A DNA stretch of 64,000 nt, taken from a virus. The stretch is from positions 1-64,000 of the IMG/VR virus record IMGVR_UViG_3300050119_000104; one strand, 5' to 3'. Below the pieces are notes generated by a model. That model was given only the letters and a program-made list of their open reading frames with translations, did no database searches and was not told the origin of the DNA. Positions 6,528-55,572 of this stretch are shown here, piece after piece. The translations under genes were made by a program, and so were the position numbers. Numbering within the stretch: the first letter of the stretch is position 1; each line of letters begins with the position of its first letter.

Positions 6528-6770
6528 CGTGCTTATCCGGTTGACACCCACAAAGGGTGACACGATCCGGTATTCCTCTACAGGACGCAGAGCACTCTGC
6601 GCGGCTCCCGAAGGAACCTTATTCATGACCCTTTTCAGCCTTTTGAACTGCCCCAATCGGGGTATTGGTCATGGAAACTCGATCTTACGTGTGCTTTCAA
6701 TCAGTCGAGAGCGATTGTCAAAACGAAGAAAAGCAAAATTTCAGGTAGCTGTCAAGCGTTGGGTGTCATC
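6528..6770 (-). mobile_element. Divergent copy of the IS1595-type MITE/omega-RNA-like cassette (copy A)
   Basis: TIR CGTGCTTATCCGGTTGACACCCAC at 6528; shares GCGCAGAGTGCTCTGCGTCCTGTAGAGG and the CTTGACAGC..AATTTTGCTTTTC block with the other copies; far TIR degenerate. Confidence 0.85.
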
Positions 6771-6842
6771 GTTTGATATCTTCTTCGCTTCCCGGGAGCC
6801 TCTGATACGGCGGATGGCGGTTCTCATATAGCATCCTTCGAC

Positions 6843-7364: not shown

Positions 7365-7386
7365 GGGGAACTTCCTTTTTATCAGT

Positions 7387-7759
7387 CGGTACTCTCAACA
7401 TGCACGGCTCGCTCTCGAGCTTCGGTACTCTCTCAGCTTTCGGCTCGCTCCACGACTTCGGTACTCTCCGCGTTCTCGGCTCGCTCTCTGTTTTCGGTAC
7501 TCTCCGTGTTTTCGGCTCGCTCCACGACTTCGGTACTCTCCGCGGTCTCGGCTCGCTCCACGACTTCGGTACTCTCCGCGTTCACGGCTCGCTCTTTGTT
7601 CATCGGTACTCTCGGCGGGCTGCGGCTCGCTCTCGTGCCTCGGTACTCTCACTCCTAGACGGCTCGCTCCTGACTTCCGGTACTCTCCCTGTGCTCGGCT
7701 CGCTCACGGTCCTCGGTACTCTCTCGCGTCCCGGCTCGCTCTTGGTTCATCGGTACTCT
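7387..7759 (-). repeat. TIGR-like dual-repeat array (AGCGAGCCG / AGAGTACCG alternating, 9-10-nt spacers)
   Basis: On + strand, 11 exact CGGTACTCT and 10 exact CGGCTCGCT alternate strictly with 20 variable 9-10-nt spacers; unit 36-37 nt; directly downstream of a Nop/IS110-like gene. Confidence 0.85.
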
Positions 7760-8171: not shown

Positions 8172-8211
8172 CATGCTTATCCGGTTTGAACATACATCCC
8201 CCAAAGGTTGA

Positions 8212-9255
8212 TTAGTCATGATGGGTTTCCATCGTCGGATGCTTCCAAGTTCCCTCGTAAATCCCGGCATAGGTCGGGCCTTCGCCGTTGGTCCCGATGC
8301 CGAGCAGCGAGCGGAAGGCGTTGAACGGGTAGAAGCGCCGGTTAAAGCGGAACGTGAACTCATTGAGGTAGGCTTGCAGATGTTGCGGCTCGACGCGCCC
8401 GTGGTGCGTGCCCTGCAACCACGCCTTGAGGTTCGAAAACACAAGGTGGACGATGGGCAGAAATTCCTCAGCGACTTCCGGGTTTCCGGCTTCGACAACC
8501 GGCAGATGGGCGTAGCCGCTCATGCCGAGCTTGTTATAGGCCGGTGCCGCGTCCGTGATGACTATCGCGCCCGGCTCGACGGCCTGTTCCACAAAGCCAA
8601 CCAGAGACTTAGCGGATCGGTCAGGAACGATTTCCAGCCGCAGGCGGCCAGCGTAGCGCCCGCCGCGTCGCATGGGCTTATCGCCCTTCTTAGCCGGACG
8701 GGTGCGAACCTCAACAGCGGCAGATACGATAGTTTTATCATCAGCATGCGGGCCACGCCCTTCACCGCGCAGCATACCGCCGATGTAGGTTTCATCAACT
8801 TCGACATGATCGCCGCGCGCCAGATTGCTACCTATCCGGTCGCGGCCTTGTCGGACCATGCCAGCGCGCAGCTTATGCAGGATTTGGAACGCGGTTTCGT
8901 ATCGGGTAAGGCCAAGCTGGCGCTGGAACTGCACGGCAGACATGCCGGGTGTCATGCTCGAAACGAGATAGGCCGCCCAAAACCATACCGTCAGCGGCGT
9001 GTGCGTGCGCTGCATCACGGTATCGACCGTCAGCGACGTTTGCTTGCGGCAGACGCGACACGTCAGGACGCTGGTACGGGTCGCCATGCGGAACGGCTCG
9101 CCTTTTTCCTCGCAATGCGGACATACGAAACCCTTGGGCCACTTCGCGCCCTCCAAGTATCTGGCGCAAGCGGCGTCATCCTTGAACAACCGCTGGAAAT
9201 CTCTGAGAGATTTGGGGAAAGGCAAGTGTTCCCATTGGAGAATGTCGGGGGCCAT
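8212..9255 (-). CDS. IS1595-family DDE transposase
   Basis: N-terminal Zn ribbon CPHC..CRVC; VEVDETYIGG, VITD, VHLVFSNLK (D-D-H-K pattern of the ISSod11 group), YLNEFTFRFNRR. Confidence 0.95.
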   Translation of the reverse strand: MAPDILQWEHLPFPKSLRDFQRLFKDDAACARYLEGAKWPKGFVCPHCEEKGEPFRMATRTSVLTCRVCRKQTSLTVDTVMQRTHTPLTVWFWAAYLVSSMTPGMSAVQFQRQLGLTRYETAFQILHKLRAGMVRQGRDRIGSNLARGDHVEVDETYIGGMLRGEGRGPHADDKTIVSAAVEVRTRPAKKGDKPMRRGGRYAGRLRLEIVPDRSAKSLVGFVEQAVEPGAIVITDAAPAYNKLGMSGYAHLPVVEAGNPEVAEEFLPIVHLVFSNLKAWLQGTHHGRVEPQHLQAYLNEFTFRFNRRFYPFNAFRSLLGIGTNGEGPTYAGIYEGTWKHPTMETHHD

Positions 9256-9262
9256 AGCTTGC

Positions 9263-9448
9263 TCAACCCCTTTCCGCTGCTGGGAAAATTCCGTGCGGCC
9301 CAGTTCCCTCGTCAGTGGGCTTGGGCTCTGGGCGCTTTGGGCCAGGGATTACTCGTCGGCCATCTTCCGAGTACGTCGCAAGACAGTAGGGGCAGGTCCG
9401 CACAATCCCGGCCCAAAACGAATGTGAGTGAGTGCAAAGCCGGGTCAT
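9263..9448 (-). CDS. IS cargo gene, small Cys/His-containing protein
   Basis: 61-aa ORF coupled by ATGA overlap to the upstream cargo gene. Confidence 0.45.
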   Translation of the reverse strand: MTRLCTHSHSFWAGIVRTCPYCLATYSEDGRRVIPGPKRPEPKPTDEGTGPHGIFPAAERG

Positions 9449-9819
9449 GCCCCGACCCCAAATTGGGCATTATCGACCTTTGCCGCGCGAACGGCGTCCG
9501 GGGTGCGCTGCGCGTGCCAGTTCTTATCGAAGTCTTCCATTGCGGCTTCTGGCGTCTCACCGAAACCGCAGACGCCGCTCATGATGTCGTCGCCATAGAG
9601 GGCGCACCATTGGCTCCCGTCCGCATAGACGGAAGGCCGAAACAGGACAGCCGGGCGCTGCATTTCCCATGTGACGGTCATGAACTGATCGCGGATCATT
9701 ACTTGGGAGTGCGAAATATCAAAGGCTTGGTGCGCCGCCTCGCGGACAACCTCGCCAATATTGCCGCCGCTGATCCGGCTGCGAACCGCGTCATAGATTG
9801 CTTGGTAATTGTCGCTCAT
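9445..9819 (-). CDS. IS cargo gene, phage-type hypothetical with HicB-like C-terminal motif
   Basis: WCALYGDDIMSGVCGFGETPEAAMEDF resembles the HicB N-terminal G-T-EEA motif. Confidence 0.55.
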   Translation of the reverse strand: MSDNYQAIYDAVRSRISGGNIGEVVREAAHQAFDISHSQVMIRDQFMTVTWEMQRPAVLFRPSVYADGSQWCALYGDDIMSGVCGFGETPEAAMEDFDKNWHAQRTPDAVRAAKVDNAQFGVGA

Positions 9820-10361
9820 GGCGCTACCCCAAATTCTGGCGTGCGAGGGTCAAGGTTGCGTTGCAGCGGGTCCATGCCGCCGAGTTTTTCGATAGCCGCA
9901 AGGCAAGCGCTAATCGCCTCGCAGTATCCCTTGGCGACAAGGTCTTGTTCCAGAAACGTGCCGCCGAGCGAGTTAATTTCATGCCACGCCTGATCAAGCG
10001 CCCAGTTAGCTTCCGCCTCGCTGTTGAGGCCGTTGCAAACGGCGGCTGCGATGGCAAGGTTTTCTTGCCTAGACAGTTCCCTAGCGCCAGTAGCCGCGAC
10101 ATCGACCCCGTCGCGGCTAACCCATCCCATTCCGTCATCGCCGCGCAATTCCCTAAAGCTGTATCCCTCTTTGTGGATCATGCGAGCCTCCCGATGCCGC
10201 GCGTGGCGATAAGGACGTTCGCCGCCGCGATGGGCGAGAAGCCCGACGCTAACAGGTGGGCTAGGCGTAATTGCTCTTCCGTGCGGAGGCGTGGCTGCTC
10301 GCCGCGCTTCGTGAGGGCGGTTTGTACTTTTACAAAGAAACTGTCGTTTTTCATGGGTCAT
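9816..10361 (-). CDS. IS cargo gene, hypothetical (true start may lie further downstream)
   Basis: 181-aa ORF overlapping the next cargo gene by ATGA. Confidence 0.5.
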   Translation of the reverse strand: MTHEKRQFLCKSTNRPHEARRAATPPHGRAITPSPPVSVGLLAHRGGERPYRHARHREARMIHKEGYSFRELRGDDGMGWVSRDGVDVAATGARELSRQENLAIAAAVCNGLNSEAEANWALDQAWHEINSLGGTFLEQDLVAKGYCEAISACLAAIEKLGGMDPLQRNLDPRTPEFGVAP

Positions 10362-10421
10362 CTCCTATCCAATGGCAGCAATCTATCAGAGGTATTTGTA
10401 TGTGTCAACCGGATAAGCATG

Positions 10422-13768: not shown

Positions 13769-14021
13769 CATGCTTATCCGGTTGATGCCCAATGCTTGAC
13801 AGCCACCTGGAATTTTGCTTTTCTCCATTCCGACAATCGCCTCCGATTGATTGGGGGTATCTAAAGACCATGTTTCCGTCGTCTGTTCGCGCCGAAAGGT
13901 AATCCGAGAGGTAGAACGGCGATGAATAAGGTCCATTTCGGTGGACCGCGCAGAGTGCTCTGCGTCCTGTAGAGGAGAGCCGGGTTCGTGTCGCCCATTG
14001 GGCGTCAACCGGATAAGCACG
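13769..14021 (+). mobile_element. IS1595-type MITE/omega-RNA-like cassette (copy C, 253 bp)
   Basis: TIRs CATGCTTATCCGGTTGA(T)GCCCAATG / CATTGGGCGTCAACCGGATAAGCACG; no direct TSD. Confidence 0.92.
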
Positions 14022-14051
14022 CGCTTTGTCATTCGGAAACCGGTTCACACA

Positions 14052-14636: not shown

Positions 14637-14871
14637 CATGCTTATCCGGTTGACGCCCAATGCTTGACAGCCACCTGGAATTTTGCTTTTCTCCGTTCCG
14701 ACAATCGCCTCCGATTGATTGGAGGTAGCTAATGTTTCCGTCGTCCGTTCGCGCCGAAAGGTAGAACGGCGATGAATAAGGTCCATTTCGGTGGATCGCG
14801 CAGAGTGCTCTGCGTCCTGTAGAGGAGAGCCGGGTTCGTGTCGCCCATTGGGCGTCAACCGGATAAGCACG
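14637..14871 (+). mobile_element. IS1595-type MITE (copy D, 235 bp)
   Basis: Both TIRs; 8-bp TSD CACTGGAG. Confidence 0.95.
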
Positions 14872-15453: not shown

Positions 15454-15471
15454 CTCAGTGATAGAAGGCTT

Positions 15472-15706
15472 CATGCTTATCCGGTTGACGCCCAATGCTT
15501 GACAGCCACCTGGAATTTTGCTTTTCTCCGTTCCGACAATCGCCTCCGATTGATTGGAGGTAGCTAATGTTTCCGTCGTCCGTTCGCGCCGAAAGGTAGA
15601 ACGGCGATGAATAAGGTCCATTTCGGTGGATCGCGCAGAGTGCTCTGCGTCCTGTAGAGGAGAGCCGGGTTCGTGTCGCCCATTGGGCGTCAACCGGATA
15701 AGCACG
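15472..15706 (+). mobile_element. IS1595-type MITE (copy E, 235 bp) inserted at the tip of the TnpB element's left TIR
   Basis: Both TIRs; 8-bp TSD GAAGGCTT. Confidence 0.95.
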
Positions 15707-15707
15707 G

Positions 15708-16846
15708 AAGGCTTATCCGGTTGATACCCACAGGCGCTAAATCCAGATGATCTTGACCTACAAATATCGCATCAAGAACCGGAACGCCAAGTCGGCTTTG
15801 CGCCGCCACGCCTTTGCGGTCAATCAGGTGTGGAATTACTGCTGTGCGCAACAGCGCGATATCGAGTCGCGTTATCGGGCCGGAGCGCCGAAGCGCAAAT
15901 GGGCGTCACACTATGACTTGCAACGCCTCTGCAAAGGCGCGGGAGCGATGTTTGGCATTCACCAACAGACCATCGGCGGCGTGTGCCGAACTTTCGCGCA
16001 AGCCCGCGACAAGGCTCGGCACGCCCCGGCGTTCCGCAAGAGCTACGGCGTGAAACGGTCCTTGGGTTGGATACCGTTTGAGGGCCAAAGCCGCCAGATC
16101 AAAGACGGCGTTGTAACCTATCTCGGCAAACGCTTCTACCTTTGGGGCCTCAAGCGGCGGCCTATTCCCGCTACGGTCAAGGGCGGCGCGTTCGTAGAGG
16201 ATGCCTTGGGGCGTTGGTATGTGTGCCTCACGGTTGAGGTCGAACGCACCCCCGCAACCGGCAACAAGGCCATCGGCATCGATTTAGGACTGAAAAGCCT
16301 CGCCACGCTCAGTGATGGCCGCAAGATCGAGGCACCACAAATCTATCGCCGATATGAACAACAGCTTGCCGCGCTACAGCGCGCAGGAAAGCGGCGTCAT
16401 GCGAAGCGGTTGCACGCGAAGATCAAAGCGTGCAGGGCTGATTTTCTACATAAGATTTCGACGGAGCTTGCTGGTCAGAACGCGATCATCGCAGTGGGCA
16501 ATGTCAATGCACGCGCCTTGGCGTCCAAGTCAGTCCTTGATGCCGGGTGGTCCTCATTCCGAAAGATGCTCGCCTACAAGGCGACCGACTATCGGGAGGT
16601 GGACGAAAGGTTCACGACCCAAGATTGTTCGGCGTGCGGTGCACGCGGTGGCCCAAAAGGTCAAAAAGGTCTTGGAATAAGGCAATGGCAATGTTCATCC
16701 TGTGGCGAAAGCCATGACCGCGATGTGAACGCGGCTTTGAACATTCTCGCCATTGCCCGGCGCAGTGCTGCGCCGCCTGTTGAGGAATACCGGAGAGCGG
16801 CATGACACAGGATTTAGTGCCCGTGGGTGTCAACCGGATAAGCACG
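15708..16846 (+). mobile_element. Non-autonomous IS1595-TIR element carrying tnpB
   Basis: Left GCTTATCCGGTTGATACCCACAGGCGCTAAATC versus reverse complement of right end GCTTATCCGGTTGACACCCACGGGCACTAAATC (30/33 identical); no IS605 end hairpins. Confidence 0.85.
15747..16805 (+). CDS. tnpB: TnpB RNA-guided nuclease with rearranged RuvC-II
   Basis: GIDLGLK, AVGNV, VDERFTTQDCSAC, CSSCGESHDRDVNAALNI. Confidence 0.95.
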   Translation: MILTYKYRIKNRNAKSALRRHAFAVNQVWNYCCAQQRDIESRYRAGAPKRKWASHYDLQRLCKGAGAMFGIHQQTIGGVCRTFAQARDKARHAPAFRKSYGVKRSLGWIPFEGQSRQIKDGVVTYLGKRFYLWGLKRRPIPATVKGGAFVEDALGRWYVCLTVEVERTPATGNKAIGIDLGLKSLATLSDGRKIEAPQIYRRYEQQLAALQRAGKRRHAKRLHAKIKACRADFLHKISTELAGQNAIIAVGNVNARALASKSVLDAGWSSFRKMLAYKATDYREVDERFTTQDCSACGARGGPKGQKGLGIRQWQCSSCGESHDRDVNAALNILAIARRSAAPPVEEYRRAA

Positions 16847-18451: not shown

Positions 18452-18707
18452 CAATCTTATCCGCCGGTTGACGCCCAATGCTTGACAGCCACCTGGAATT
18501 TTGCTTTTCTCCGTTCCGACAATCGCCTCCGATTGATTGGGGGTAGCTAAAGACCATGTTTCCGTCGTCCGTTCGCGCCGAAAGGTAATCCGAGAGGTAG
18601 AACGGCGATGAATAAGGTCCATTTCGGTGGACCGCGCAGAGTGCTCTGCGTCCTGTAGAGGAGAGCCGGGTTCGTGTCGCCCATTGGGCGTCAACCGGAT
18701 AAGCACG
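18452..18707 (+). mobile_element. IS1595-type MITE (copy G), left TIR degenerate
   Basis: CAATCTTATCCGCCGGTTGACGCCC (3-nt insertion); right TIR intact; no TSD. Confidence 0.9.
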
Positions 18708-18726
18708 ACTGCGCCCGTGAGGTTGG

Positions 18727-18966
18727 ATGATGCCTGACGACAGAGTGTGTGAGGACGGCGAGTTTTGCATCTGTATAAGAAATGATTGGGATCGCGAGAC
18801 GTGTGAGCTTTTCCATTTCCCAAGTCCCAAAACGCTGCGCTCCGGCCGCTCGACTATGCTCACCGAATTGCGCGACCAGGGGCACGACCGCATCCGCAAA
18901 GAGAATGCCGAGACCCGCGACCGCCGCGCTGCGCTCCGCGCTACGCTGCCTAGGAAACATCGATGA
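18727..18966 (+). CDS. Hypothetical protein between two MITEs
   Basis: 79-aa ORF with GAGG RBS. Confidence 0.4.
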   Translation: MMPDDRVCEDGEFCICIRNDWDRETCELFHFPSPKTLRSGRSTMLTELRDQGHDRIRKENAETRDRRAALRATLPRKHR

Positions 18967-18973
18967 CAGAATA

Positions 18974-19208
18974 GCCCAATGCTTGACAGCCACCTGGAAT
19001 TTTGCTTTTCTCCGTTCCGACAATCGCCTCCGATTGATTGGGGGTAACTAAAGACCATGTTTCCGTCGTCCGTTCGCGCCGAAAGGTAATCCGAGAGGTA
19101 GAACGGCGATGAATAAGGTCCATTTCGGTGGATCGCGCAGAGTGCTCTGCGTCCTGTAGAGGAGAGCCGGGTTCGTGTCGCCCATTGGGCGTCAACCGGA
19201 TAAGCACG
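18974..19208 (+). mobile_element. IS1595-type MITE (copy H), left TIR deleted
   Basis: Begins at GCCCAATGCTTGACAG; right TIR intact. Confidence 0.9.
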
Positions 19209-19237: not shown

Positions 19238-19641
19238 ATGCTCATTGAATGGTGGAGGGGCGGCAAGCCACAAGGTCAGTGGTTGTCGGTTCAAGACATG
19301 ATTGCGGATATCGGACCGGGGAAGTTCGAGCTATTGCCCGGCGACAAAATACTTTTCCTAGAGTCATACACATTCGCCAAATTCCGCGCTGAGGTAAATG
19401 CCGCGCGGACGCCGAAGCCCACGCTGCGGCTAGTAACCAAAGAAAGACAGGAACCTTGACAGGGATGATAGAGCCGTTCTACCTGATCCCCATGAACGAC
19501 ACCATACTCGATCTGCCAGCCTTCCTGCCAAGCCGTCGCGCCGCCGGGACTCGCGTCATGCTACGTTCGAACAACAAGCGATATCGAGGCGGCCCGGCCA
19601 TCATCGTTCGAGCCGAAGGTACTGCGCATGACTCAAGATAA
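19238..19641 (+). CDS. Two coupled small hypothetical ORFs (19238..19459, 19456..19641) ending at an orphan TIR
   Basis: Overlapping stop/start; followed by a TIR of the type at the TnpB element end. Confidence 0.4.
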
Positions 19642-19672
19642 AGGGCCTGTGGGTGTCAACCGGATAAGTACG
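19626..19672 (+). mobile_element. Orphan right end of an IS1595-TIR element
   Basis: GCATGACTCAAGATAAAGGGCCTGTGGGTGTCAACCGGATAAGTACG closely resembles 16800-16846. Confidence 0.75.
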
Positions 19673-26073: not shown

Positions 26074-26329
26074 CGTGCTTATCCGGTTGACGCCCAATGG
26101 GCGACACGAACCCGGCTCTCCTCTACAGGACGCAGAGCACTCTGCGCGATCCACCGAAATGGACCTTATTCATCGCCGTTCTACCTCTCGGATTACCTTT
26201 CGGCGCGAACGGACGACGGAAACATCATGGTCTTTAGCTACCCCCAATCAATCGGAGGCGATTGTCGGAACGGAGAAAAGCAAAATTCCAGGTGGCTGTC
26301 AAGCATTGGGCGTCAACCGGATAAGCATG
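26074..26329 (-). mobile_element. IS1595-type MITE (copy J, 256 bp, inverted relative to local genes)
   Basis: Both TIRs; no TSD; its CATG end could supply the ATG (26327) of the ORF running to 26530. Confidence 0.92.
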
Positions 26330-28411: not shown

Positions 28412-30542
28412 ATGACCGATCTAACAATCCCCGACGATCTCTCGATCCCGAAATTCCTGGACTTGAAAATTCCAGCGAACCACACGGCTTGGAAAGAGGG
28501 TCACAAAATTTGGACGCCCCGGAAGGTCAAGGCCGAAGCCAAGGCAAAGATCAATCGTGATAGTGAAGGCCGCTCGTTGCCGAAGAACATGGATGAAACT
28601 TCCTGGGCATTCTTGCGCGCCCAAGAAAAGGAAACCAAAGCTGAGGTTGAAGCGGATAAAGCTGAGCGCTTCCGATTTTTGGAAGCTTTGCGCCAAGAAA
28701 AGGCTCGGGTCAAGGCAGCGGCGAAGGCGGTTAAGCATGCCATATGATGGCGCTGGACAATACCGATATTGAAAGGCTAGGAAGAGACCATGACGATGAA
28801 ATGTGTTCAGATTGTCGGGGCAACATGTCCTGATCCGAGTCAGTGACGGGGACGCACATGAGCAGTAACCTTATAGACTGCGATCTCTATCCTTGGTGCG
28901 ATAGCCAGGGTTGCGTAGGTCATCCTGAGACTTGCCACCGCGCAGCAGATTTGCGTGCCGGTATTGACAAGCGTAATCCATTCTCAAAGGGGTCACGCAC
29001 TTTCGGACACCTAGGTACCAAGCAGGAATTGCTTCGGCGCTTGCAGGAGCTACAGCGGGGATATCAGGAAGCAGCCGCGCCAATCATCCAACAACTCGCG
29101 GATATCGTGGCGCTCGAACCGCCACCGCCGACTATTCCGCGCGATCAGATATCGCCGGAAATTCTGAAAATTATAAAAAGGCAAGAAAATGACCAAACTT
29201 GAAAAGGCCCTCTATCACACACGAGTCGCGCTCACGATTGCATTTGCTCTCGGACTCGTTGCAATCCCTTGTGCACAAGCCGAGGTGCTCGCGCTGCCGC
29301 AAACCGACAACGGTTACAGCTACTGCCAGGGCGGTCTCTGTGTGTGGGGTTCGGGCGCGCTGCCGACTCCCGGCGTGCATCAAGTGCCCCAGCCCTCGTC
29401 CGAAGATCGAGAAGCTGCCGCGAAACACGAGCATGAGTGGGCGGAGCGGTGCAAGCCGACAATCGGCTATGACGCCTATGGTGTCGCGCGCTACACTTAT
29501 GCCAAAACCGGTTGCGAATTCGGTAATGGCCGATGAAGTTTTATCTCGCGCTCGTGTCACTTCGGTTCAATCAATTCGCGTGGCGGCTGTGGATGTTAAG
29601 CGAACGATGGAACCAAGAATGCATCGACCGATGGCTGTTCAATAATAGATAGGTTCATGCTTATCCGGTTGACGCCCAATGCTTGACAGCCACCTGGAAT
29701 TTTGCTTTTCTCCGTTCCGACAATCGCCTCCGATTGATTGGGGGTATCTAAAGACCATGTTTCCGTCGTCTGTTCGCGCCGAAAGGTAGAACGGCGATGA
29801 ATAAGGTCCATTTCGGTGGATCGCGCAGAGTGCTCTGCGTCCTGTAGAGGGAGAGCCGGGTTCGTGTCGTCCATTGGGCGTCAACCGGATAAGCACGGGT
29901 TATAATCCGGCCCAAAGTTTATAATACCGGATTGCGGTTCGCGAGCGTTCGTGCGAAAGTCTCGGTCGAAACACAGGAGGCAATCACATGGCGACTGTTC
30001 GAAAACTTTTGAAGCGCGTGAAAAAGACGATCAGACAAGCGCAAATGGCAACGGCCGATGCGAGATTTGCTACGCAGGAAATTCACGATCTCATCGATGC
30101 GATGAATGCTACGCCCCCTCTTACAGACCCGGAGTCGGAAAGCCCGGCGACTCCGGCGGAAGATGAGACACAAAGCCCGGCGGCGTATTCGGGCGGCTGC
30201 TGAGAGAGTGGTTTACGAAGATACGCTCGATAATCCGTTCTCGACGTAACTGCAAAAAAGGAAGTCCCCAAAATGAGCAACACATCTGGAAGATGCTTTC
30301 GAGCTTTCCGCCGAACAAAGAAACGGCTGAATAGTCAGGGCCGTCCTTGGGCGCGACCGATCAGAACCAAAATCCCGCTCTCCCTCCGAATGTTCATGCT
30401 CCCTGGTCATGGACAAGCGAGTCAGAAATCAGTCACGCGTGACGTGCTGGCTGGTATCGTTCAGCGATATACGGCGGCGTGGATGGCTTACGTCAAGAAA
30501 ATGCAGGCTGAGAAAGCTGCCGCTGCGAAAGCCGCCAACTAA
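28412..30542 (+). CDS. Small hypothetical ORFs (28412..28747, 28858..29202, 29189..29536 exported, 29988..30203, 30273..30542)
   Basis: GGAG/AGGA RBS before most starts. Confidence 0.5.
29656..29897 (+). mobile_element. IS1595-type MITE (copy K, 242 bp)
   Basis: Both TIRs; no TSD; same variant as copy L. Confidence 0.92.
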
Positions 30543-30912: not shown

Positions 30913-33046
30913 ATGGCAAAAGATGCACGCGGACACGGTAGCGAAGGCGGTCGCGGCGGCGTAAGTCGGCCGGTCGGATCAGGTTTGCAATTCGGCGTTG
31001 CGTCAAAATTCAAATCAAAGGGCGGCGCGGGCATGAAGTCGGATCGAGATCACACCTCCGATGCGGCGCGCACCGTTTCCGATCTGCGCTCGCGCATGGC
31101 GACCACTGGCGCAGGCCACAAAACCGGACTCATGCAGGGTATCAAGAATTTTCTCGGAGGCAGGTGATGGCAAAGGATGCAAAAGGTCACGGTTCGGAAG
31201 GTCGCAGTGGCGGTCAAAAGCAAAGCTGGGATGCGAAGCGCGGAAGCTATGCCAAAGGATTTGCAGGGCCTACGCCGGATGGCGGTCATGGAGTATCTGG
31301 TTCACAGATAAAGCAATTCATGGCTGCTAGGCAAGCCGCAGTTACCGCCCCGGATTTAGGTGCCCCATCTGATCCGGCCGCGCATCAAACTGGCGTAGAA
31401 GCCGCGCGCAACACGCCGCGCGAGTCGCTTCGCGGTAGCATCAACAGCAATCCAATCGATGCCTCGGGTGAAGGCGGCGAAGGCCAGCCTACCGCACGCA
31501 ATCCGCACGGCATTCATATAGGCTACACGAAGGCGTGATTAGACAAGGCGCGCAAATGCGCCTAATCTTTTTTCTAACAACGAAAGCGAAAACACCTCCA
31601 CAACAAAGCGGCATCGGAGTAAAGTCATGGCGAAGGACAAAGGCGGACACGGTTCAGAAAGTCGCGGCGGCAGCGCACTCACCGCGTCTGTCTCTCGCGG
31701 TACTCCGATTGCAGGTATTCCAGCGTCCGGTGGCCAGCCGGTCGCATCCAACGAGCACGCGGCGGCAACGCTCGCGAGCGGCCCGAAGTCGGCACCGGTC
31801 GCGACGCACGACATGATGGGGCGCTCTCAGGAGTCGATTGAAGGCGGCGAAGGCCAGCCTACCGCACGCAATCCGCACGGCATTCATATGGGCTACACGA
31901 AGGCGTGATTAGACAAGGCGCGCAAATGCGCCTTCCAGCGTCGAGGCCGTGCGTGATATGCCGCGCGCCGCGCTAGCTTGGCGGGATCGTCAAAACAGTA
32001 TCCAACAAAGCATGCTTATCCGGTTGACGCCCAATGCTTGACAGCCACCTGGAATTTTGCTTTTCTCCGTTCCGACAATCGCCTCCGATTGATTGGGGGT
32101 ATCTAAAGACCATGTTTCCGTCGTCTGTTCGCGCCGAAAGGTAGAACGGCGATGAATAAGGTCCATTTCGGTGGATCGCGCAGAGTGCTCTGCGTCCTGT
32201 AGAGGGAGAGCCGGGTTCGTGTCGTCCATTGGGCGTCAACCGGATAAGCACGCAACAAAGGACGCTAGGGAAAGCTGCGTCGTCCCGAGAGGTTCGCAGC
32301 AAAGCCGATCTCACTGGACGCGCGAGCTATTGGGGGCAATTGAAGGACGCAGGCGGTCACGGTAGCGAAGCACACGCGGCGCATCAGGCGGGCACGCTCG
32401 ACGCGCTTCCTCGGATAATTCGGAATGCCGACGACGATACCTTGCTTGACATATCCCGCTGGGAGCGGCAAACATTGCAGGGTGCTATGTTAGCGCATGG
32501 TAAAACTCAGTGGGACGAGAACCAGGACAGTGGGAGCCTGGACCCGAACCGCCCAGCAAAGGCAGCGAGCAAATGAGCAAAGATGCAAAAGGTCACGGCA
32601 GCAACGCACGCGGCGCACATTCTAGTGGAGTCGATCAGGTCGGCAAGCCTGCGCCCCAGGTCAACGACGCGGCGATGAAAGTCATCAGTAGCACGAAGCC
32701 CGGCGAAGGCTTCTCTATCACACCGGGCGGCAGTCAACCGACAGACGGTCACATGGTTGCCCTGCCAAGCCGTACACAGGATGTCGATCCCGCTGCGTTA
32801 TCCGGGCCCGGCGGTCGTGCCATCATTGACGCGTTCACCGCGAAGAACGCGGACGTTTTCAGTGGCAACCCGAATATGCATGTCGGTGGCTGGCTCGATC
32901 CCGACACGCACAAGCTTTCACTCGATCCGTCCGAGAATATCAAGGATCGCAAGACAGCGATTGCCTCTGGCATAGCGCGCAATCAAAAAGAGATTTGGGA
33001 TGTGAAGAATAAGACCGGGATAAAGACAGGTGGCAGTGGTACATGA
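30913..33046 (+). CDS. Five short Gly-rich paralogs beginning (M)xKDxxGHGS (30913..31167, 31167..31538, 31627..31908, 32340..32576, 32573..33046)
   Basis: Shared N-terminal motif visible in the translations. Confidence 0.75.
31469..31933 (+). repeat. 95-bp direct repeat (31469-31563 and 31839-31933)
   Basis: One mismatch; duplicates the C-terminus GGEGQPTARNPHGIHxGYTKA and the downstream sequence. Confidence 0.9.
32011..32252 (+). mobile_element. IS1595-type MITE (copy L, 242 bp)
   Basis: Both TIRs; 8-bp TSD CAACAAAG. Confidence 0.95.
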
Positions 33047-42872: not shown

Positions 42873-42929
42873 TACGGAGGGCCGCATGACCCAAGATAAA
42901 GGGGCTGTGTATCCCGGAAAGTAAGTCAC

Positions 42930-45747: not shown

Positions 45748-46185
45748 ATGATCGATGTAGATTTGAATGATCATAGTGGCGGACCGCATTGGCTCACAAA
45801 AGCAGGCGGTCATGACCACGCCAAAAATATCCGCGCCAAGCACCGCGCTGCGTGGGTAGCGAAGCATCCGCGCGTGCCTAATCCCGTGCGCCCGGAGACG
45901 ATGGCGAAGTTGGAAGCTGTCAGCGCCTATGCGCAGAAAGTTCACGCTGCCAAAGTCCTGGCTCGAATAACCAAAACCTGGAATACCGCGCTCGCGATCA
46001 TCGATAAATCAGAGCTTGTATTGCGCGACGTGATCGAGCGCGGGCTTTTGAATACCGCCGGACTTGATCATCAGCGCTACAATGATGCGATGCGGGTCGC
46101 TGACCGACTCATGAAAAAGATCACACGCATTCGGACCAAAGCCATCAAAGCTGCCTTCCGCCTTTTGCGGGATCAATCCTATTAA
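45748..46185 (+). CDS. Hypothetical basic protein
   Basis: 145-aa ORF; its stop codon lies inside the IS605 right end. Confidence 0.55.
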   Translation: MIDVDLNDHSGGPHWLTKAGGHDHAKNIRAKHRAAWVAKHPRVPNPVRPETMAKLEAVSAYAQKVHAAKVLARITKTWNTALAIIDKSELVLRDVIERGLLNTAGLDHQRYNDAMRVADRLMKKITRIRTKAIKAAFRLLRDQSY

Positions 46186-46198
46186 CGTCTTCCCCGGT

Positions 46199-47275
46199 CT
46201 AAAGGCCAGGGATTTCCACTACCGGAGGCGGACGTTCCCGCCCGACACGGAGAATGTTTAGCGCTGCGTTCACATCCCGATCGTGAGAAGTGCCGCAGTC
46301 TGAACAAACCCAATGTCTTATTTCAAGCGCGCCCATACCTTTCGGACTGCTGTCGGGAATACACCCGCAGCACGAGCACGTCTGAGAAGTCCATCGCTCG
46401 TCGGCTTCTACATACCGAGCCCCGTGCCTGCTGGCTTTGTAGCGGAGCTGATTGCGGAACGTCGTCCATCCTGCATCGAGTACGGATTTAGCCATCCGCG
46501 TCTTTACAAGTTTGGCGGCGCTCACATTGCCGACAACGATAAGCCGATTTTGGCGAACTATCGAAGTAGTCGCCTTGTGGTGTTGATCCTTTCGGACGTT
46601 CGCAATCTTTGCGTGGATGGCTTTGACGCGACACTTGTTGCCGGCGCGCTGTTGAACGGCGAGCGCGACCTCGTACTTGCGATAGTGCTGAAGCGCCGGA
46701 ACAGTGTTGCCATTGCTGCACGTCGCCAGCGTCCTCAATCCAAGGTCGATCCCTATCTCTCCGTTGCCGGTCGGCAGGTCATCGGTAACCTCACACTGGA
46801 AACAGACATACCAGCGCCCGCGAGCGTCCTGAGTAAAGCAGCCGGCCTTGATGTCGTCGGGAATATCCCGCGATTTCCAGAAGTGGAATTTCCGTTTGAG
46901 GTAGACGACATGTGCGCCTTCGAGACGTACAGCGCGCTTGATAAATGGCAGCCAACCGAGTGCGCGCTTCGACCCACCGCTGGCGCGAAAGCGCGGGGCG
47001 TGGCGGGCGGCGTTGCGCGAGATTACAAACTGCTTGCAAATCTGACTGACCGTATCGGAGTGCAGCCCAAGTTCCGCAGCACATCCAGTAGTCAGCTTGA
47101 CAAGATCGAAGTGCGACGGCCAACGACGCTTAGGCGCGCCGTCCCTGTAATTGGACATCGCCCTGCGCTGTATCTCGCAACAGTAATTCCACACGAAGTT
47201 GCACGCCCGCGAGTGCCGCCCGAGGTACTTACCGACCATTGCGTCTTTGATGCGGAACTTATATGTAAGGATCAT
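46199..47275 (-). CDS. tnpB: TnpB RNA-guided nuclease with rearranged RuvC-II
   Basis: GIDLGLR, VVGNV, ADERWTSQTCSCC, CSDCGTSHDRDVNAALNI; clearly similar to the 15747..16805 TnpB. Confidence 0.95.
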   Translation of the reverse strand: MILTYKFRIKDAMVGKYLGRHSRACNFVWNYCCEIQRRAMSNYRDGAPKRRWPSHFDLVKLTTGCAAELGLHSDTVSQICKQFVISRNAARHAPRFRASGGSKRALGWLPFIKRAVRLEGAHVVYLKRKFHFWKSRDIPDDIKAGCFTQDARGRWYVCFQCEVTDDLPTGNGEIGIDLGLRTLATCSNGNTVPALQHYRKYEVALAVQQRAGNKCRVKAIHAKIANVRKDQHHKATTSIVRQNRLIVVGNVSAAKLVKTRMAKSVLDAGWTTFRNQLRYKASRHGARYVEADERWTSQTCSCCGCIPDSSPKGMGALEIRHWVCSDCGTSHDRDVNAALNILRVGRERPPPVVEIPGL

Positions 47276-47304
47276 ACGCAGGAAGTATTGGTCGGTGGTC
47301 AAAA

Positions 47305-47715
47305 ATGCAAGGCTTCAGGCGCGAACGACATAGCGTTTCCCGGCTCACGGTCCACTTGGTCTGCGTCACGAAATACCGACGCAAAATCCTCGATGGCCGG
47401 GCGCTTGACTGGCTCAAGGCGCACTTTGCCAAGGTTTGCCAGACAATGGATTGTGTACTTCTCGCCTGCGACGGTGAGAACGACCATGTCCATTTGCTGG
47501 TCGAGTACCCACCGAAACACTCGATCTCTGTCTTGGTTAATGCCATCAAGGGTACGTCCAGCCGGCTACTGCGCGCCGAAAGGCCAGACGTCGCCAAGCG
47601 CTACTGGAAGGGTGTTCTGTGGTCCCCGGCCTATTTTGCCGCCTCGACCGGCGGAGCCACGCTTGAAACGGTTAAGCGGTACGTCGAACAGCAGCGCGCC
47701 TCCTCCTCGCCCTGA
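47305..47715 (+). CDS. tnpA: IS200-like Y1 HUH transposase
   Basis: HLVCVTKYRR, DHVHLL (HUH), LWSPAYF, KRYVEQQ (catalytic Tyr). Confidence 0.95.
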   Translation: MQGFRRERHSVSRLTVHLVCVTKYRRKILDGRALDWLKAHFAKVCQTMDCVLLACDGENDHVHLLVEYPPKHSISVLVNAIKGTSSRLLRAERPDVAKRYWKGVLWSPAYFAASTGGATLETVKRYVEQQRASSSP

Positions 47716-52113: not shown

Positions 52114-55100
52114 ATGGCCGACGATGGTTCGACGCCGACTCAAGTTCCTGTCGGGCCGGGCACGCCGACTGTCGTTGAAGGTACTACGATCACAGTCGGT
52201 ATTCCCGCGCCTGCAATAACTCCGGTCGTTTCCTCAATCCCCATCGTGACACAAGTCCCTGTGTCCGCGCGTGAACCTATCGCAATTCCCACCACACCAA
52301 TTGTTGTTCAGGTTGAAGCAACAGCCGTTATCACGCCCGTTCCAGTTATTCAGCGCGGACCCGTCGGTGCATCCGGCGCAAGCGGCGGGACTGGGGCGTC
52401 AGGCGGTACCGGGCCTATCGGCCCTGGTGGCGGGGCATCTGGCAGCACGGGCGCGTCAGGCGCATCGGGCGCGACGGGTGCGACAGGAGTCGGCACGACG
52501 GGTGCAACAGGAGTCGGCACAACCGGAGCAACAGGTCCAATCGGTGCATCAGGTGCCTCGGGCGCGAGCGGCGCATCGGGCGGTATGGGCGCAAGCGGTG
52601 CGACGGGTGTGAGCGGATCGCCGGGAGAAGCAGGCGAAGATGGCGCTGACGGATCAGTCGGTGCAAGCGGCGGTTCAGGAGCAACAGGCACATCGGGCGC
52701 ATCAGGAATTCCAGGATCAGTCGGTGGCACAGGCGGCACAGGTAGCGTCGGCGCAAGCGGGGCAGATGGCGCGAGCGGCGCGACGGGTGCATCAGGTGCC
52801 TCGGGCGCGACGGGTGCGACAGGAGTCGGCACGACGGGTGCGACAGGAGTCGGCACAACCGGAGCAACAGGTCCAATCGGTGCATCAGGTGCCTCGGGCG
52901 CGACGGGTGCGACAGGAGTCGGCACGACGGGTGCAACAGGAGTCGGCACAACCGGAGCAACAGGTCCAATCGGTGCATCAGGTGCCTCGGGCGCGAGCGG
53001 CGCATCGGGCGGTATGGGCGCAAGCGGTGCGACAGGTGTTCGTGGCGAACCGGGTGACGCGGGCGATGATGGTACTGACGGCACGCCGGGAGCTTCGGGC
53101 GCAAGCGGCGGTTCAGGAGCAACAGGCACATCGGGCGCATCAGGAATTCCAGGATCAGTCGGTGGCACAGGCGGCACAGGTAGCGTCGGCACAACTGGAG
53201 CAACAGGTCCAATCGGTGCATCAGGTGCCTCGGGCGCGACGGGTGCGACAGGAGTCGGCACGACGGGTGCAACAGGAGTCGGCACAACCGGAGCAACAGG
53301 TCCAATCGGTGCATCAGGTGCCTCGGGCGCGACGGGTGCGACAGGAGTCGGCACGACAGGTGCAACAGGAGTCGGCACAACCGGAGCAACAGGTCCAATC
53401 GGTGCATCAGGTGCCTCGGGCGCGACGGGTGCGACAGGAGTCGGCACGACGGGTGCAACAGGAGTCGGCACAACCGGACCTACAGGGCCGACTGGCGCAA
53501 CAGGCGCAACAGGCGTCGGCGCGACAGGAGCAACTGGAGTCATCGGCTCAGTCTCATCGACACCTTACGGCATGGTGATGTCGAATAATCTTTCGCCAGC
53601 CGTCCTGAATGTCGCAGCGGGAGTCCGCATTGATAGTACGTTCACGACCTATATCACGCTCGCCGCTTTCACCAAATCAGTTGCGGGATCATGGGCAGCT
53701 GGGTCCGGCGGTAATGGCATGGGCACCGGACTCACTGCAACAAACGCCACATGGTACCACGTCTTTGCGATCATCAATGGCGGTGTCGCTGACGTTTACT
53801 TCGATACATCAATCACCGCAGCAAACAAGCCCGCTGGCACCACTGCGTTTTGCCGTATCGGTTCGATCTACTATCTGACGGGCCAGATAAGACCGTTCAC
53901 GCAAGTCGGAGATCGATTTGAACTTGTGACACCTGTCACCTTTATCAGTGGCGCGGCCACGACCGCAACCCCCCAACTTCCTGTTTGTGGCGCACCAATC
54001 GGCTTGTCAGTTATAGCGACATTTGATGCATATTTGAACTACTCGTCGGCGGCATCTTACATGACTTTCTATTCCCCTCTTCAAACAGGTCAGGGAGCAG
54101 AAGGGACCCCGCTGGGGACGTATAGTCTAATAGCGTTTTCGGCGGCGGCTGCCGGAGCGATGGGACAATTTTCAGTCCTTACAAATACGTCAGGACAAAT
54201 TGAATGGGTCGCAAATGGCGTAGGAGGATTGTTATACGCAGCACTTACTGGGTGGACTGAGCCGACTATGAGCATCGCTGGCCCGACCGGCGCCACGGGG
54301 GCCACGGGTGCCATAGGCGCCACAGGCGGCACGGGTGGCACTGGCGGTACCGGAGCGACAGGAGTCGGCACGGCAGGCGCCACAGGCGTCATCGGCTCAG
54401 TCTCATCGACGCCTTACGGCATGGTGATGTCGAATGGTGCAACAGGCACAGCCCTCAACGTCGCTGCCGGTGTTCGCATCGATAGCACTTTCACGACGTA
54501 CATCACGCTCGCCGCTTTCACCAAATCAGTTGCGGGATCATGGGCAGCTGGGTCCGGCGGTAATGGCATGGGCACCGGACTCACTGCAACAAACGCCACA
54601 TGGTACCACGTCTTTGCGATCATCAATGGCGGTGTCGCTGACGTTTACTTCGATACATCAATCACCGCAGCAAACAAGCCCGCTGGCACCACTGCGTTTT
54701 GCCGTATCGGTTCGATCTACTATCTGACGGGCCAGATAAGACCGTTCACGCAAGTCGGAGATCGATTTGAACTTGTGACACCTGTCACCTTTATCAGTGG
54801 CGCGGCCACGACCGCAACCCCCCAACTTCCTGTTTGTGGCGCACCAATCGGCTTGTCAGTTATAGCGACATTTGATGCATATTTGAACTACTCGTCGGCG
54901 GCATCTTACATGACTTTCTATTCCCCTCTTCAAACAGGTCAGGGAGCAGAAGGGACCCCGCTGGGGACGTATAGTCTAATAGCGTTTTCGGCGGCGGCTG
55001 CCGGAGCGATGGGACAATTTTCAGTCCTTACAAATACGTCAGGACAAATTGAATGGGTCGCAAATGGCGTAGGAGGATTGTTATACGCAGCACTTACTGG

Positions 55101-55572
55101 GTGGACTGAGCCGACTATGAGCATCGCTGGCCCGACCGGCGCCACGGGGGCCACGGGTGCCATAGGCGCCACAGGCGGCACGGGTGGCACTGGCGGTACC
55201 GGAGCGACCGGTTCGACTGGTACTGTAGGCGCGACTGGACCATCAACAGTGATCCCGCAAAATATCCAGAGCGGGGCATACGGGCTATTGATTGGCGATG
55301 CGGGCTACGAAATTTTCCATCCGACCGCTGACGCGACCGCGCGCATCTGGACTATTCCGGCTAACGGGTCCATAGCGTTTCCGATTGGGACCGTGATCAC
55401 CTTCACTAACCAACACGGTGCGGGTGTCATCACAATCGCGATCACGACAGATACGATGTACATGGCTGGGACGGGCTCGACTGGTAGTCGCACATTAGCG
55501 GCAAATGGCATTGCAACGGCGAAGAAAGTCACGGCGACAGAGTGGCTCATCTCCGGCGTAGGACTGACTTAA
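52114..55572 (+). CDS. Collagen-like fibre protein with duplicated globular domain
   Basis: Long G-A-T/G-A-S triplet tracts; 283-codon near-identical tandem duplication (starts 53539 and 54388); phage-fibre-type C-terminus. Confidence 0.85.

Follow-up and report, generated by a model that had tools for sequence, protein, structure and literature searches.

The repeat at positions 13769–14021 of the phage record IMGVR_UViG_3300050119_000104 is a non-autonomous transposon of the IS1595 family (a MITE), and its cargo is probably a protein-less, miniaturised TnpB guide-RNA gene that travels on an IS1595-type carrier and is used in trans by TnpB. The source record is 117,459 bp long and is rated complete by CheckV; the window that we analyzed comprises its first 64 kb (64,000 nucleotides). 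A preliminary description of the window had proposed that the interior of this repeat is an RNA fold conserved on one strand, an interpretation that our results support. Judging from its homologs, the interior is most likely an omega-RNA scaffold (reRNA) from which the protein-only parts have been removed, and it would keep a one-strand RNA fold because it is such a trimmed scaffold.

The element is one member of a repeat family of 235–256 bp (about 240 bp) that has 26-bp terminal inverted repeats and no ORF, and of which the 117 kb of the genome hold 11 full copies plus fragments. The copies beyond the window start at 95814 and 102018 (minus strand), with fragments at ~111442 and ~115891. Within the window, and on the plus strand unless stated otherwise, we found full copies not only at 13769–14021 but also at 14637–14871, at 15472–15706 (sitting in the left tip of a tnpB element), at 18455–18707 (with an altered left tip), at 18956–19208 (with its left end replaced and homology starting at ~18974), at 29656–29897 and at 32011–32252, together with a divergent copy that has a degenerate left end (6528–6771, minus strand, 63 bits in a covariance model) and a copy at 26074–26329 (minus strand). 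Perfect 8-bp target-site duplications (TSDs) flank five copies and are mutually unrelated, comprising CACTGGAG (14637 copy), GAAGGCTT (15472 copy) and CAACAAAG (32011 copy) as well as AAGAGACC and AAACATAA; unrelated direct repeats of this kind show that insertion involves a staggered cut. The 13769 and 26074 copies lack TSDs; an inversion between them was considered as the cause and rejected, as inspection showed that it does not fit the flanks. The copies at 18455–19208 flank a 79-codon ORF (18727–18966), the end of which is overlapped by the left-end replacement of the second copy, and this region may be a composite or rearranged unit.

An autonomous IS1595-family element resides in the same window at 8172–10421 (minus strand), as identified from a PF12762 match and from reading its ends and its 8-bp TSD (ATCGGGAT). 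Its transposase gene (8212–9255) encodes a DDE_Tnp_IS1595 domain (PF12762, 1.4e-36), and about the outer 15–18 nt of its ends are common with the MITE ends; ends of this type are found on all MITE copies, the tnpB elements and the IS1595 element. Inverted ends, 8-bp TSDs on five copies and an autonomous partner with matching ends together make the designation of the repeat as a MITE, already used in the preliminary description, a sound one. Adjoining the IS1595 element is a tandem array (7386–7747) of ~36-nt units, each with a conserved 28-nt core. Farther along the window, long G-rich repeat arrays with periods of 9 nt and 93 nt (52329–55214) probably belong to a structural gene, where they would encode collagen-like Gly-X-Y repeats.

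The family has been seen in this phage, in one related viral contig and possibly at the end of one metagenome contig (L100), and it comprises ~3 lineages: the main one, the 73%-identical copy at 6528 and one copy in IMGVR_UViG_3300050136_000008 (L031). Searching phage and plasmid collections with the element by blastn gave no match, exact-motif scans for the MITE interior reached only one other contig among viral contigs, and the 15 matches that such scans returned from species-representative genomes were all chance matches in unrelated taxa, while another such scan of these genomes had no match. Rfam had no match in the whole window at gathering scores, and a permissive regional scan yielded one chance match of 11 bits. 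A second phage contig carries a MITE that is 90% identical and a tnpB element that is 95% identical to those of this phage, and the only other sequence that the two have in common is one 1.3-kb gene at 76% identity. The presence of both elements in an otherwise divergent phage is evidence of mobility between genomes.

Reading the copy at 13769–14021 from left to right on the plus strand, the left terminal inverted repeat (13769–13794, tip CATG), which pairs as an inverted repeat with 13996–14021, is followed by a conserved 5′ block (13795–13827) that contains CTTGACA and TTTTGCTTTTCT and is ~89% conserved even in the 6528 copy and L031. Next come H1 (13828–13856), a MITE-specific 5′ stem-loop with one compensatory pair and wobble changes in its lower stem, and stem P (13877–13924), in which 13877–13888 pairs with 13914–13924 around a short GAAA-containing hairpin (13891-12) and which shows two compensatory and two wobble changes among MITEs. 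Stem Q (13930–13947), preceded by a conserved GAAUAAG linker, is cut down to a UUCG-capped hairpin with two compensatory pairs among MITEs. Hairpin X (13949–13964) has a GUGC loop (13955–13958) that pairs with GCAC at 14017–14020 to form a pseudoknot, and hairpin Y (13966–13975, CCU-GUAG-AGG) is paired in 100% of alignment cells, two of its three pairs being compensatory among relatives. Stem Z (13980–14012) joins CCGG at 13980–13983 to CCGG at 14009–14012 around hairpin W (13993–14003); its 3′ strand falls inside the right inverted repeat, and IS605-type relatives have an 8-bp hairpin at its position. The RNA scaffold finishes on the last bases of the right terminal inverted repeat (13996–14021), the tip of which is CACG. 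On the analogy of TnpB omega RNAs, the flank directly 3′ of the scaffold (14022–14041) is the predicted guide.

From stem P to its right end, the MITE is homologous to the 3′ end of the tnpB genes of this genome. Its final 75–90 nt align with the 3′ ends of the tnpB elements in blastn, and what distinguishes MITEs from the sister tnpB 3′ modules is compensatory pairs in two hairpins. An nhmmer profile of the MITE interior from which both inverted repeats had been removed recovered tnpB 3′ ends in unrelated contigs (E values of 1e-6, 7e-4 and 2e-3). We gathered TnpB relatives from assemblies as well as viral contigs and, after aligning 28 distinct right ends linked to TnpB (alignment A2), built a covariance model (R1) containing hairpins X, Y and Z from TnpB-linked ends alone, with the MITEs excluded from training. 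All nine MITE copies in the window scored 59–64 bits (E values of ~1e-19 to 1e-20) and did so in the fold orientation only, whereas the opposite bare ends scored 15 bits and the IS1595 ends ~10 bits. The R1 signal did not arise from the inverted repeat, because the omega module was carried by only ~10 of ~169 ends of the inverted-repeat family (150 other metagenome and viral loci). In every MITE copy the module extends exactly to the right tip, and its GCAC strand stops one base short of the end.

This homology also indicates what the MITE has lost. Within the tnpB genes, the first zinc-finger pair is encoded inside stem P, and the ~60 nt inside stem Q (7–13 bp) encode the second zinc-finger pair and the RuvC-III motif. 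The MITE retains P, the CCGAAAGG piece, the GAAUAAG linker, the base of Q, X, Y, Z and the tail, and the two coding loops are replaced by the short hairpins capped by GAAA and UUCG. Its 5′ 85 nt (the CTTGACA block and H1) had no detectable homolog in tnpB loci and are better conserved than the rest of the element.

The sequence variants on which the preliminary description had based its RNA fold could all be found. The 6528–6771 copy (minus strand) has CATGACC/GGTCATG and GGTTCC-UUCG-GGAGCC, and the main copies, including 13769–14021, have CGTCGTC/GGCGATG (13877–13883 with 13918–13924) and GGTCCAT-TTCG-GTGGACC (13930–13947) in their place; the point variants GGACC/GGATC, CCGTTC/CTGTTC and GGAG/GGGG each create a G-U pair on the plus strand only. 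The further claim that two inner hairpins are kept with different sequence is weaker, since the inner region of one lineage does not align with that of another. The main lineage is better described there by one stem (GCC/GGU) with an insert, and a 12-nt indel drops the insert to leave the GAAA-capped hairpin GCC-GAAA-GGU.

We aligned 12 MITE copies (10 distinct rows; alignment A6) to a hand-written structure of 46 pairs that comprised H1, P, Q, X, Y, Z, W and the pseudoknot. Standard pairs formed in 99.3% of cells, compared with 33–43% when the partners were slid by 1–3 columns. Six pairs changed on both sides, compared with 0.8 ± 0.8 in shuffles (0 of 500 shuffles), and in 11 pairs only one side changed, each such change creating or removing a G-U pair. 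G-U pairs made up about one in eight cells and would be C-A mismatches on the opposite strand. The upper stem of H1 had one uncompensated mismatch in each of two divergent copies (two in total). Folding energies favored the same strand, both for the whole element (−122.2 kcal/mol on the plus strand versus −99.5 on the minus strand) and for the interior only (−76.7, z −2.7, versus −59.1, z −0.16). By this measure the fold is specific to the plus strand.

An element derived from a tnpB gene could have inherited its stems from the parent and be an inert relic, the unused remnant of an internal deletion. The MITE is plainly derived from a tnpB 3′ end, there are further derivatives that arose by deletion or are chimeric (e.g., L132:5581–6285), and the insertion sites show no TAM pattern, all of which would fit a relic. 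However, after loss of the ORF three lineages kept every stem, with the six double and 11 wobble-compatible single changes noted above, the coding loops did not decay but became stable UUCG and GAAA caps, and the 12-nt indel preserves a capped hairpin. We therefore consider an inert relic unlikely.

Because the MITEs effectively comprise three lineages, covariation within the family is thin and, taken alone, suggestive; the deeper test is that of the TnpB-linked homologs. The preliminary description had named covariation in a larger alignment as an observation on which its reading should stand or fall, and there covariation was strong. For this comparison, we used a model-guided alignment of 24 distinct TIR-type 3′ modules with the MITEs included (A4), in which 98.3% of cells paired (compared with 25–38% for slid partners) and nine of 17 pairs changed on both sides (0 of 500 shuffles). 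Since A4 was fitted to X, Y and Z, its counts for these three elements lean towards the structure. The pseudoknot was absent from the model, yet 100% of its cells paired, with two compensatory pairs. Four of the six stem pairs of hairpin X co-vary among relatives.

Across relatives, changes in the loop of hairpin X are matched by changes in the four to five bases that directly precede the end of the element. The pair is GUGC/GCAC in the MITEs, GCGC/GCGC in L240, GCGU/ACGC in L231, a wobble of the GUGU/GCAC type in L216, AACGU/ACGUU in IS605-type relatives such as L241, and GACGU/ACGUC in L193. We counted the pseudoknot on the TIR-type subset only, because the MAFFT alignment was off by one column between the IS605-type and the TIR-type tails. 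Since the X loop pairs, through the pseudoknot, with the final bases of the right inverted repeat, the scaffold and the element end together.

Stems P and Q were assessed separately. RNAalifold recovered stem P from an alignment restricted to TnpB-linked sequences (A5), and RNAalifold finds P, X and Y. When each strand was paired with its own partner rather than with the partners from other sequences, the mean duplex energy was −9.1 versus −6.3 kcal/mol for P and −12.7 versus −6.9 kcal/mol for Q (0 of 5000 permutations in each case); this cross-pairing control does not correct for phylogenetic relatedness, but the effect is large and includes the MITE variants. Altogether, stems P, Q, X, Y and Z co-vary across ~30 relatives.

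A fold this strong on one strand could also belong to a cis-acting mRNA element that works independently of TnpB by stabilising, terminating or directing the processing of neighboring transcripts, a role known from ERIC and Correia repeats. ERIC, Correia and similar MITEs are short TIR elements that are intergenic and often co-transcribed. The copies described here are likewise intergenic, and as the preliminary description had stated for the window, most are co-oriented with local genes (eight of nine in the window, where the copy at 26074 is the sole one opposing them, and nine of 11 across the genome, with gene orientation taken from crude gene calls), although read-through transcription would account for this co-orientation as well as selection on the RNA would. 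ERIC and Correia, however, fold mainly by pairing their two ends and are without guide-scaffold homology, whereas the interior of this MITE has its own asymmetric, co-varying fold. A cis-acting role leaves the omega homology, the terminal-base pseudoknot and the linker motifs common with tnpB unexplained, and a terminator scan called no site on the plus strand; we regard such a role as quite improbable. That the hairpins act instead at the DNA level, as single-strand or cruciform signals for the transposase, is very improbable, for although DNA hairpins tolerate G-T pairs and the inverted repeat overlaps both stem Z and hairpin W, these stems are also present in relatives of the IS605 type, whose transposase and ends are different, the autonomous IS1595 element is without them, and IS1595 DDE enzymes work on double-stranded inverted ends.

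A guide-RNA gene used in trans needs a TnpB, and the genome has five tnpB genes, three of which are enclosed by MITE-type inverted ends. The enclosed gene in the window (15747–16805) lies with its omega-RNA region in an element at 15707–16846 (plus strand) and encodes a 352-aa TnpB (PF07282, 8e-20; PF01385, 2e-17); R1 scores this element at 75.7 bits (16751–16846). Two other elements with the same ends, which are identical to each other, lie at 93227–94362 and from 116344 to the contig end. The contig thus stops partway through an inverted repeat of the third tnpB element (116344–117459), and the assembly probably broke at the repeat despite its completeness estimate of 100%. Two further tnpB genes lie outside inverted repeats, at 46184–47400 (minus strand) and at 85103–85306 of the full record, and the right end of the tnpB at 46253 is of the IS605 type and includes the same omega module (54 bits).

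Remnants and rearranged forms of these elements were also seen. A solo right end of a tnpB-type element at 19600–19672 (tip TACG, 12 bits in the model) had no left partner that we could find, and a 27-nt stretch at 42883–42909 and 19625–19651 is near-identical to the inner right end of the 93227–94362 element; by alignment it lies upstream of the inverted repeat, in the variable loop of stem Z rather than in the guide. The 705-bp stretch at L132:5581–6285, on a metagenome contig, has the same inverted ends and contains the first 25 tnpB codons, then an unrelated insert, and then the omega 3′ module (80 bits), and it looks like another nuclease-less derivative. At L198:1783–2030, 3′ of tnpB, there are several tandem fragments of inverted-repeat tips (...GGATGAGCACG / ...CCGGATAAGCACG).

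A protein search listed more than 6,000 TnpB relatives, and the close ones fall into two types. Some belong to IS605 elements of the classical kind, which have a divergent tnpA and a subterminal hairpin and whose tail is AAGACGUUAA. Others, including those from bacterial assemblies labelled Beijerinckiaceae or Bradyrhizobium, lie between IS1595-type inverted repeats with 8-bp duplications, as illustrated by L197 (GTCCCATC, 8/8) and L199 (7/8). In the latter type the tip of the inverted repeat doubles as the pseudoknot strand, which fits the observation that omega-bearing right ends read CACG and MITE left ends CATG.

Throughout this TnpB clade the canonical RuvC-II Glu is replaced by an invariant Gly251, and an invariant Glu287 is found six residues before the first CxxC; Asp179 (RuvC-I), Asp324/326 (RuvC-III) and both CxxC pairs are also invariant. 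Glu287, the Asp residues and the CxxC pairs match the 'rearranged' TnpB signature defined by Yoon et al. (PMC10711439), and on this reading of the active site we infer that the TnpB of the sister elements is a nuclease. The absence of the canonical Glu could instead point to a nuclease-dead TldR, a reading that we set aside in view of the rearranged Glu, both Asp residues and the invariant zinc finger.

If the MITE cargo is a TnpB guide-RNA gene, the cassette would be transcribed on the plus strand, whether its own conserved 5′ block drives this or transcription reads through from phage genes in the same orientation. This block may be a promoter or leader; a sigma-70 consensus scan called no promoter at its TTGACA, or for the transcription start that the preliminary description had suggested just 3′ of TTTTGCTTTTCT, and the block has no recognizable −10 element. 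TnpB from the sister elements would then bind and process the MITE RNA in trans, with the 16–20 nt of flank 3′ of each copy serving as the guide, and each copy would target TnpB to the intact form of the site that it occupies; a cut there, in a genome without the insert, would favor copying in of the element by recombination. The sole perfect match of the predicted guide at 14022–14041 in the genome is itself, and none of the predicted guides of the copies has a second genomic target, each matching only its own site. The copy at 15472 is inserted in the left tip of a tnpB element, and its predicted guide is therefore the left end of that element; this guide resembles every family end with 2–3 mismatches (window 15464–15714).

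A homing or retention role has been shown for IS605 TnpB. IS605-type relatives have YCAT directly outside the left end, and we found no shared motif 5′ of the MITE TSDs, which implies that empty sites may often lack a TAM. In addition, a DDE carrier is argued to gain less from homing (PMC13565253), and the rationale for homing is weakened because a cut-and-paste DDE transposon already breaks its donor site (PMC13565253).

Bacterial tnpB genes are said to reside in IS200/IS605 and IS607 elements, where the omega RNA spans the right end and takes a guide of ~16 nt from the flank (10.1101/2023.11.30.569447). The MITE RNA resembles the omega RNAs of those elements in its right-end location, in a scaffold that runs to the boundary with the flank as predicted guide, in its homology to the tnpB 3′ end, and in having a multi-stem fold with a pseudoknot beside the guide, as in the reRNA scaffolds whose terminal pseudoknot uses transposon-end bases (PMC10711439). 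It differs in that the MITE stands alone, has tetraloop hairpins in place of the coding loops and an extra 5′ block, and has a carrier with IS1595-type TIRs and TSDs rather than one of the IS605 or IS607 type.

The nearest precedent in terms of working is provided by the PATEs of IS200/IS605, which, like the MITE, are protein-less and non-autonomous, keep a guide-RNA gene, often encode omega RNAs and need TnpB in trans (10.1101/2023.03.14.532601). Non-autonomous elements that carry a stand-alone omega RNA are therefore a known kind. PATEs, however, have subterminal hairpins, no TIR and no TSD, enter 3′ of a short invariant motif, and are moved by the Y1 TnpA, whereas the MITE has 26-bp inverted ends, variable 8-bp TSDs and a DDE transposase partner; the TIRs and variable TSDs rule out that the MITE, though PATE-like in its working, is a PATE proper. 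TnpB and Fanzor proteins have also been found in TIR (DDE) transposons: Fanzor1 occurs within TIR elements (PMC10711439), and a 2026 review lists rare prokaryotic TnpBs in inverted repeats with DDE transposases of the ISL2, IS630 and IS1031 types (PMC13565253). These resemble the present system in having a guide-RNA nuclease between inverted repeats with TSDs and an RNA scaffold that uses inverted-repeat bases. They differ in that no IS1595 carrier was found named among them (our literature search for TnpB linked with IS1595 ends found no paper) and in that the MITE is a nuclease-less derivative. What is new here is the IS1595-type TIR/TSD carrier, the evolutionarily trimmed scaffold, the MITE-like burst and the phage host.

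Most descriptions of bacterial TnpB guide RNAs come from IS605 and IS607 elements, in which guide RNA and nuclease gene overlap; here the two are separated, and the MITE shows which parts of an omega RNA selection keeps in the absence of coding constraint, which is useful for the design of compact guides. The sister elements also document that IS1595-type elements can carry a TnpB clade whose active site is rearranged, a type that has been linked to how eukaryotic Fanzors arose. A broader scenario, which we put forward tentatively and consider rather doubtful, is that the phage carries a dispersed library of at least 11 stand-alone guide cassettes, each having its own flank-derived guide, multiplied by a DDE transposon and served by three trans-acting tnpB genes, that would cut related phages lacking the inserts. 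If this scenario is true, guide genes have in nature become physically uncoupled from the nuclease gene and been amplified alone, and the trimmed scaffold is a naturally minimised omega RNA. TnpB and these guides would, in mixed infections, drive the cassettes into related phages or exclude those phages, which leads to the testable idea that phages may use TnpB together with many trans guides for homing or competition.
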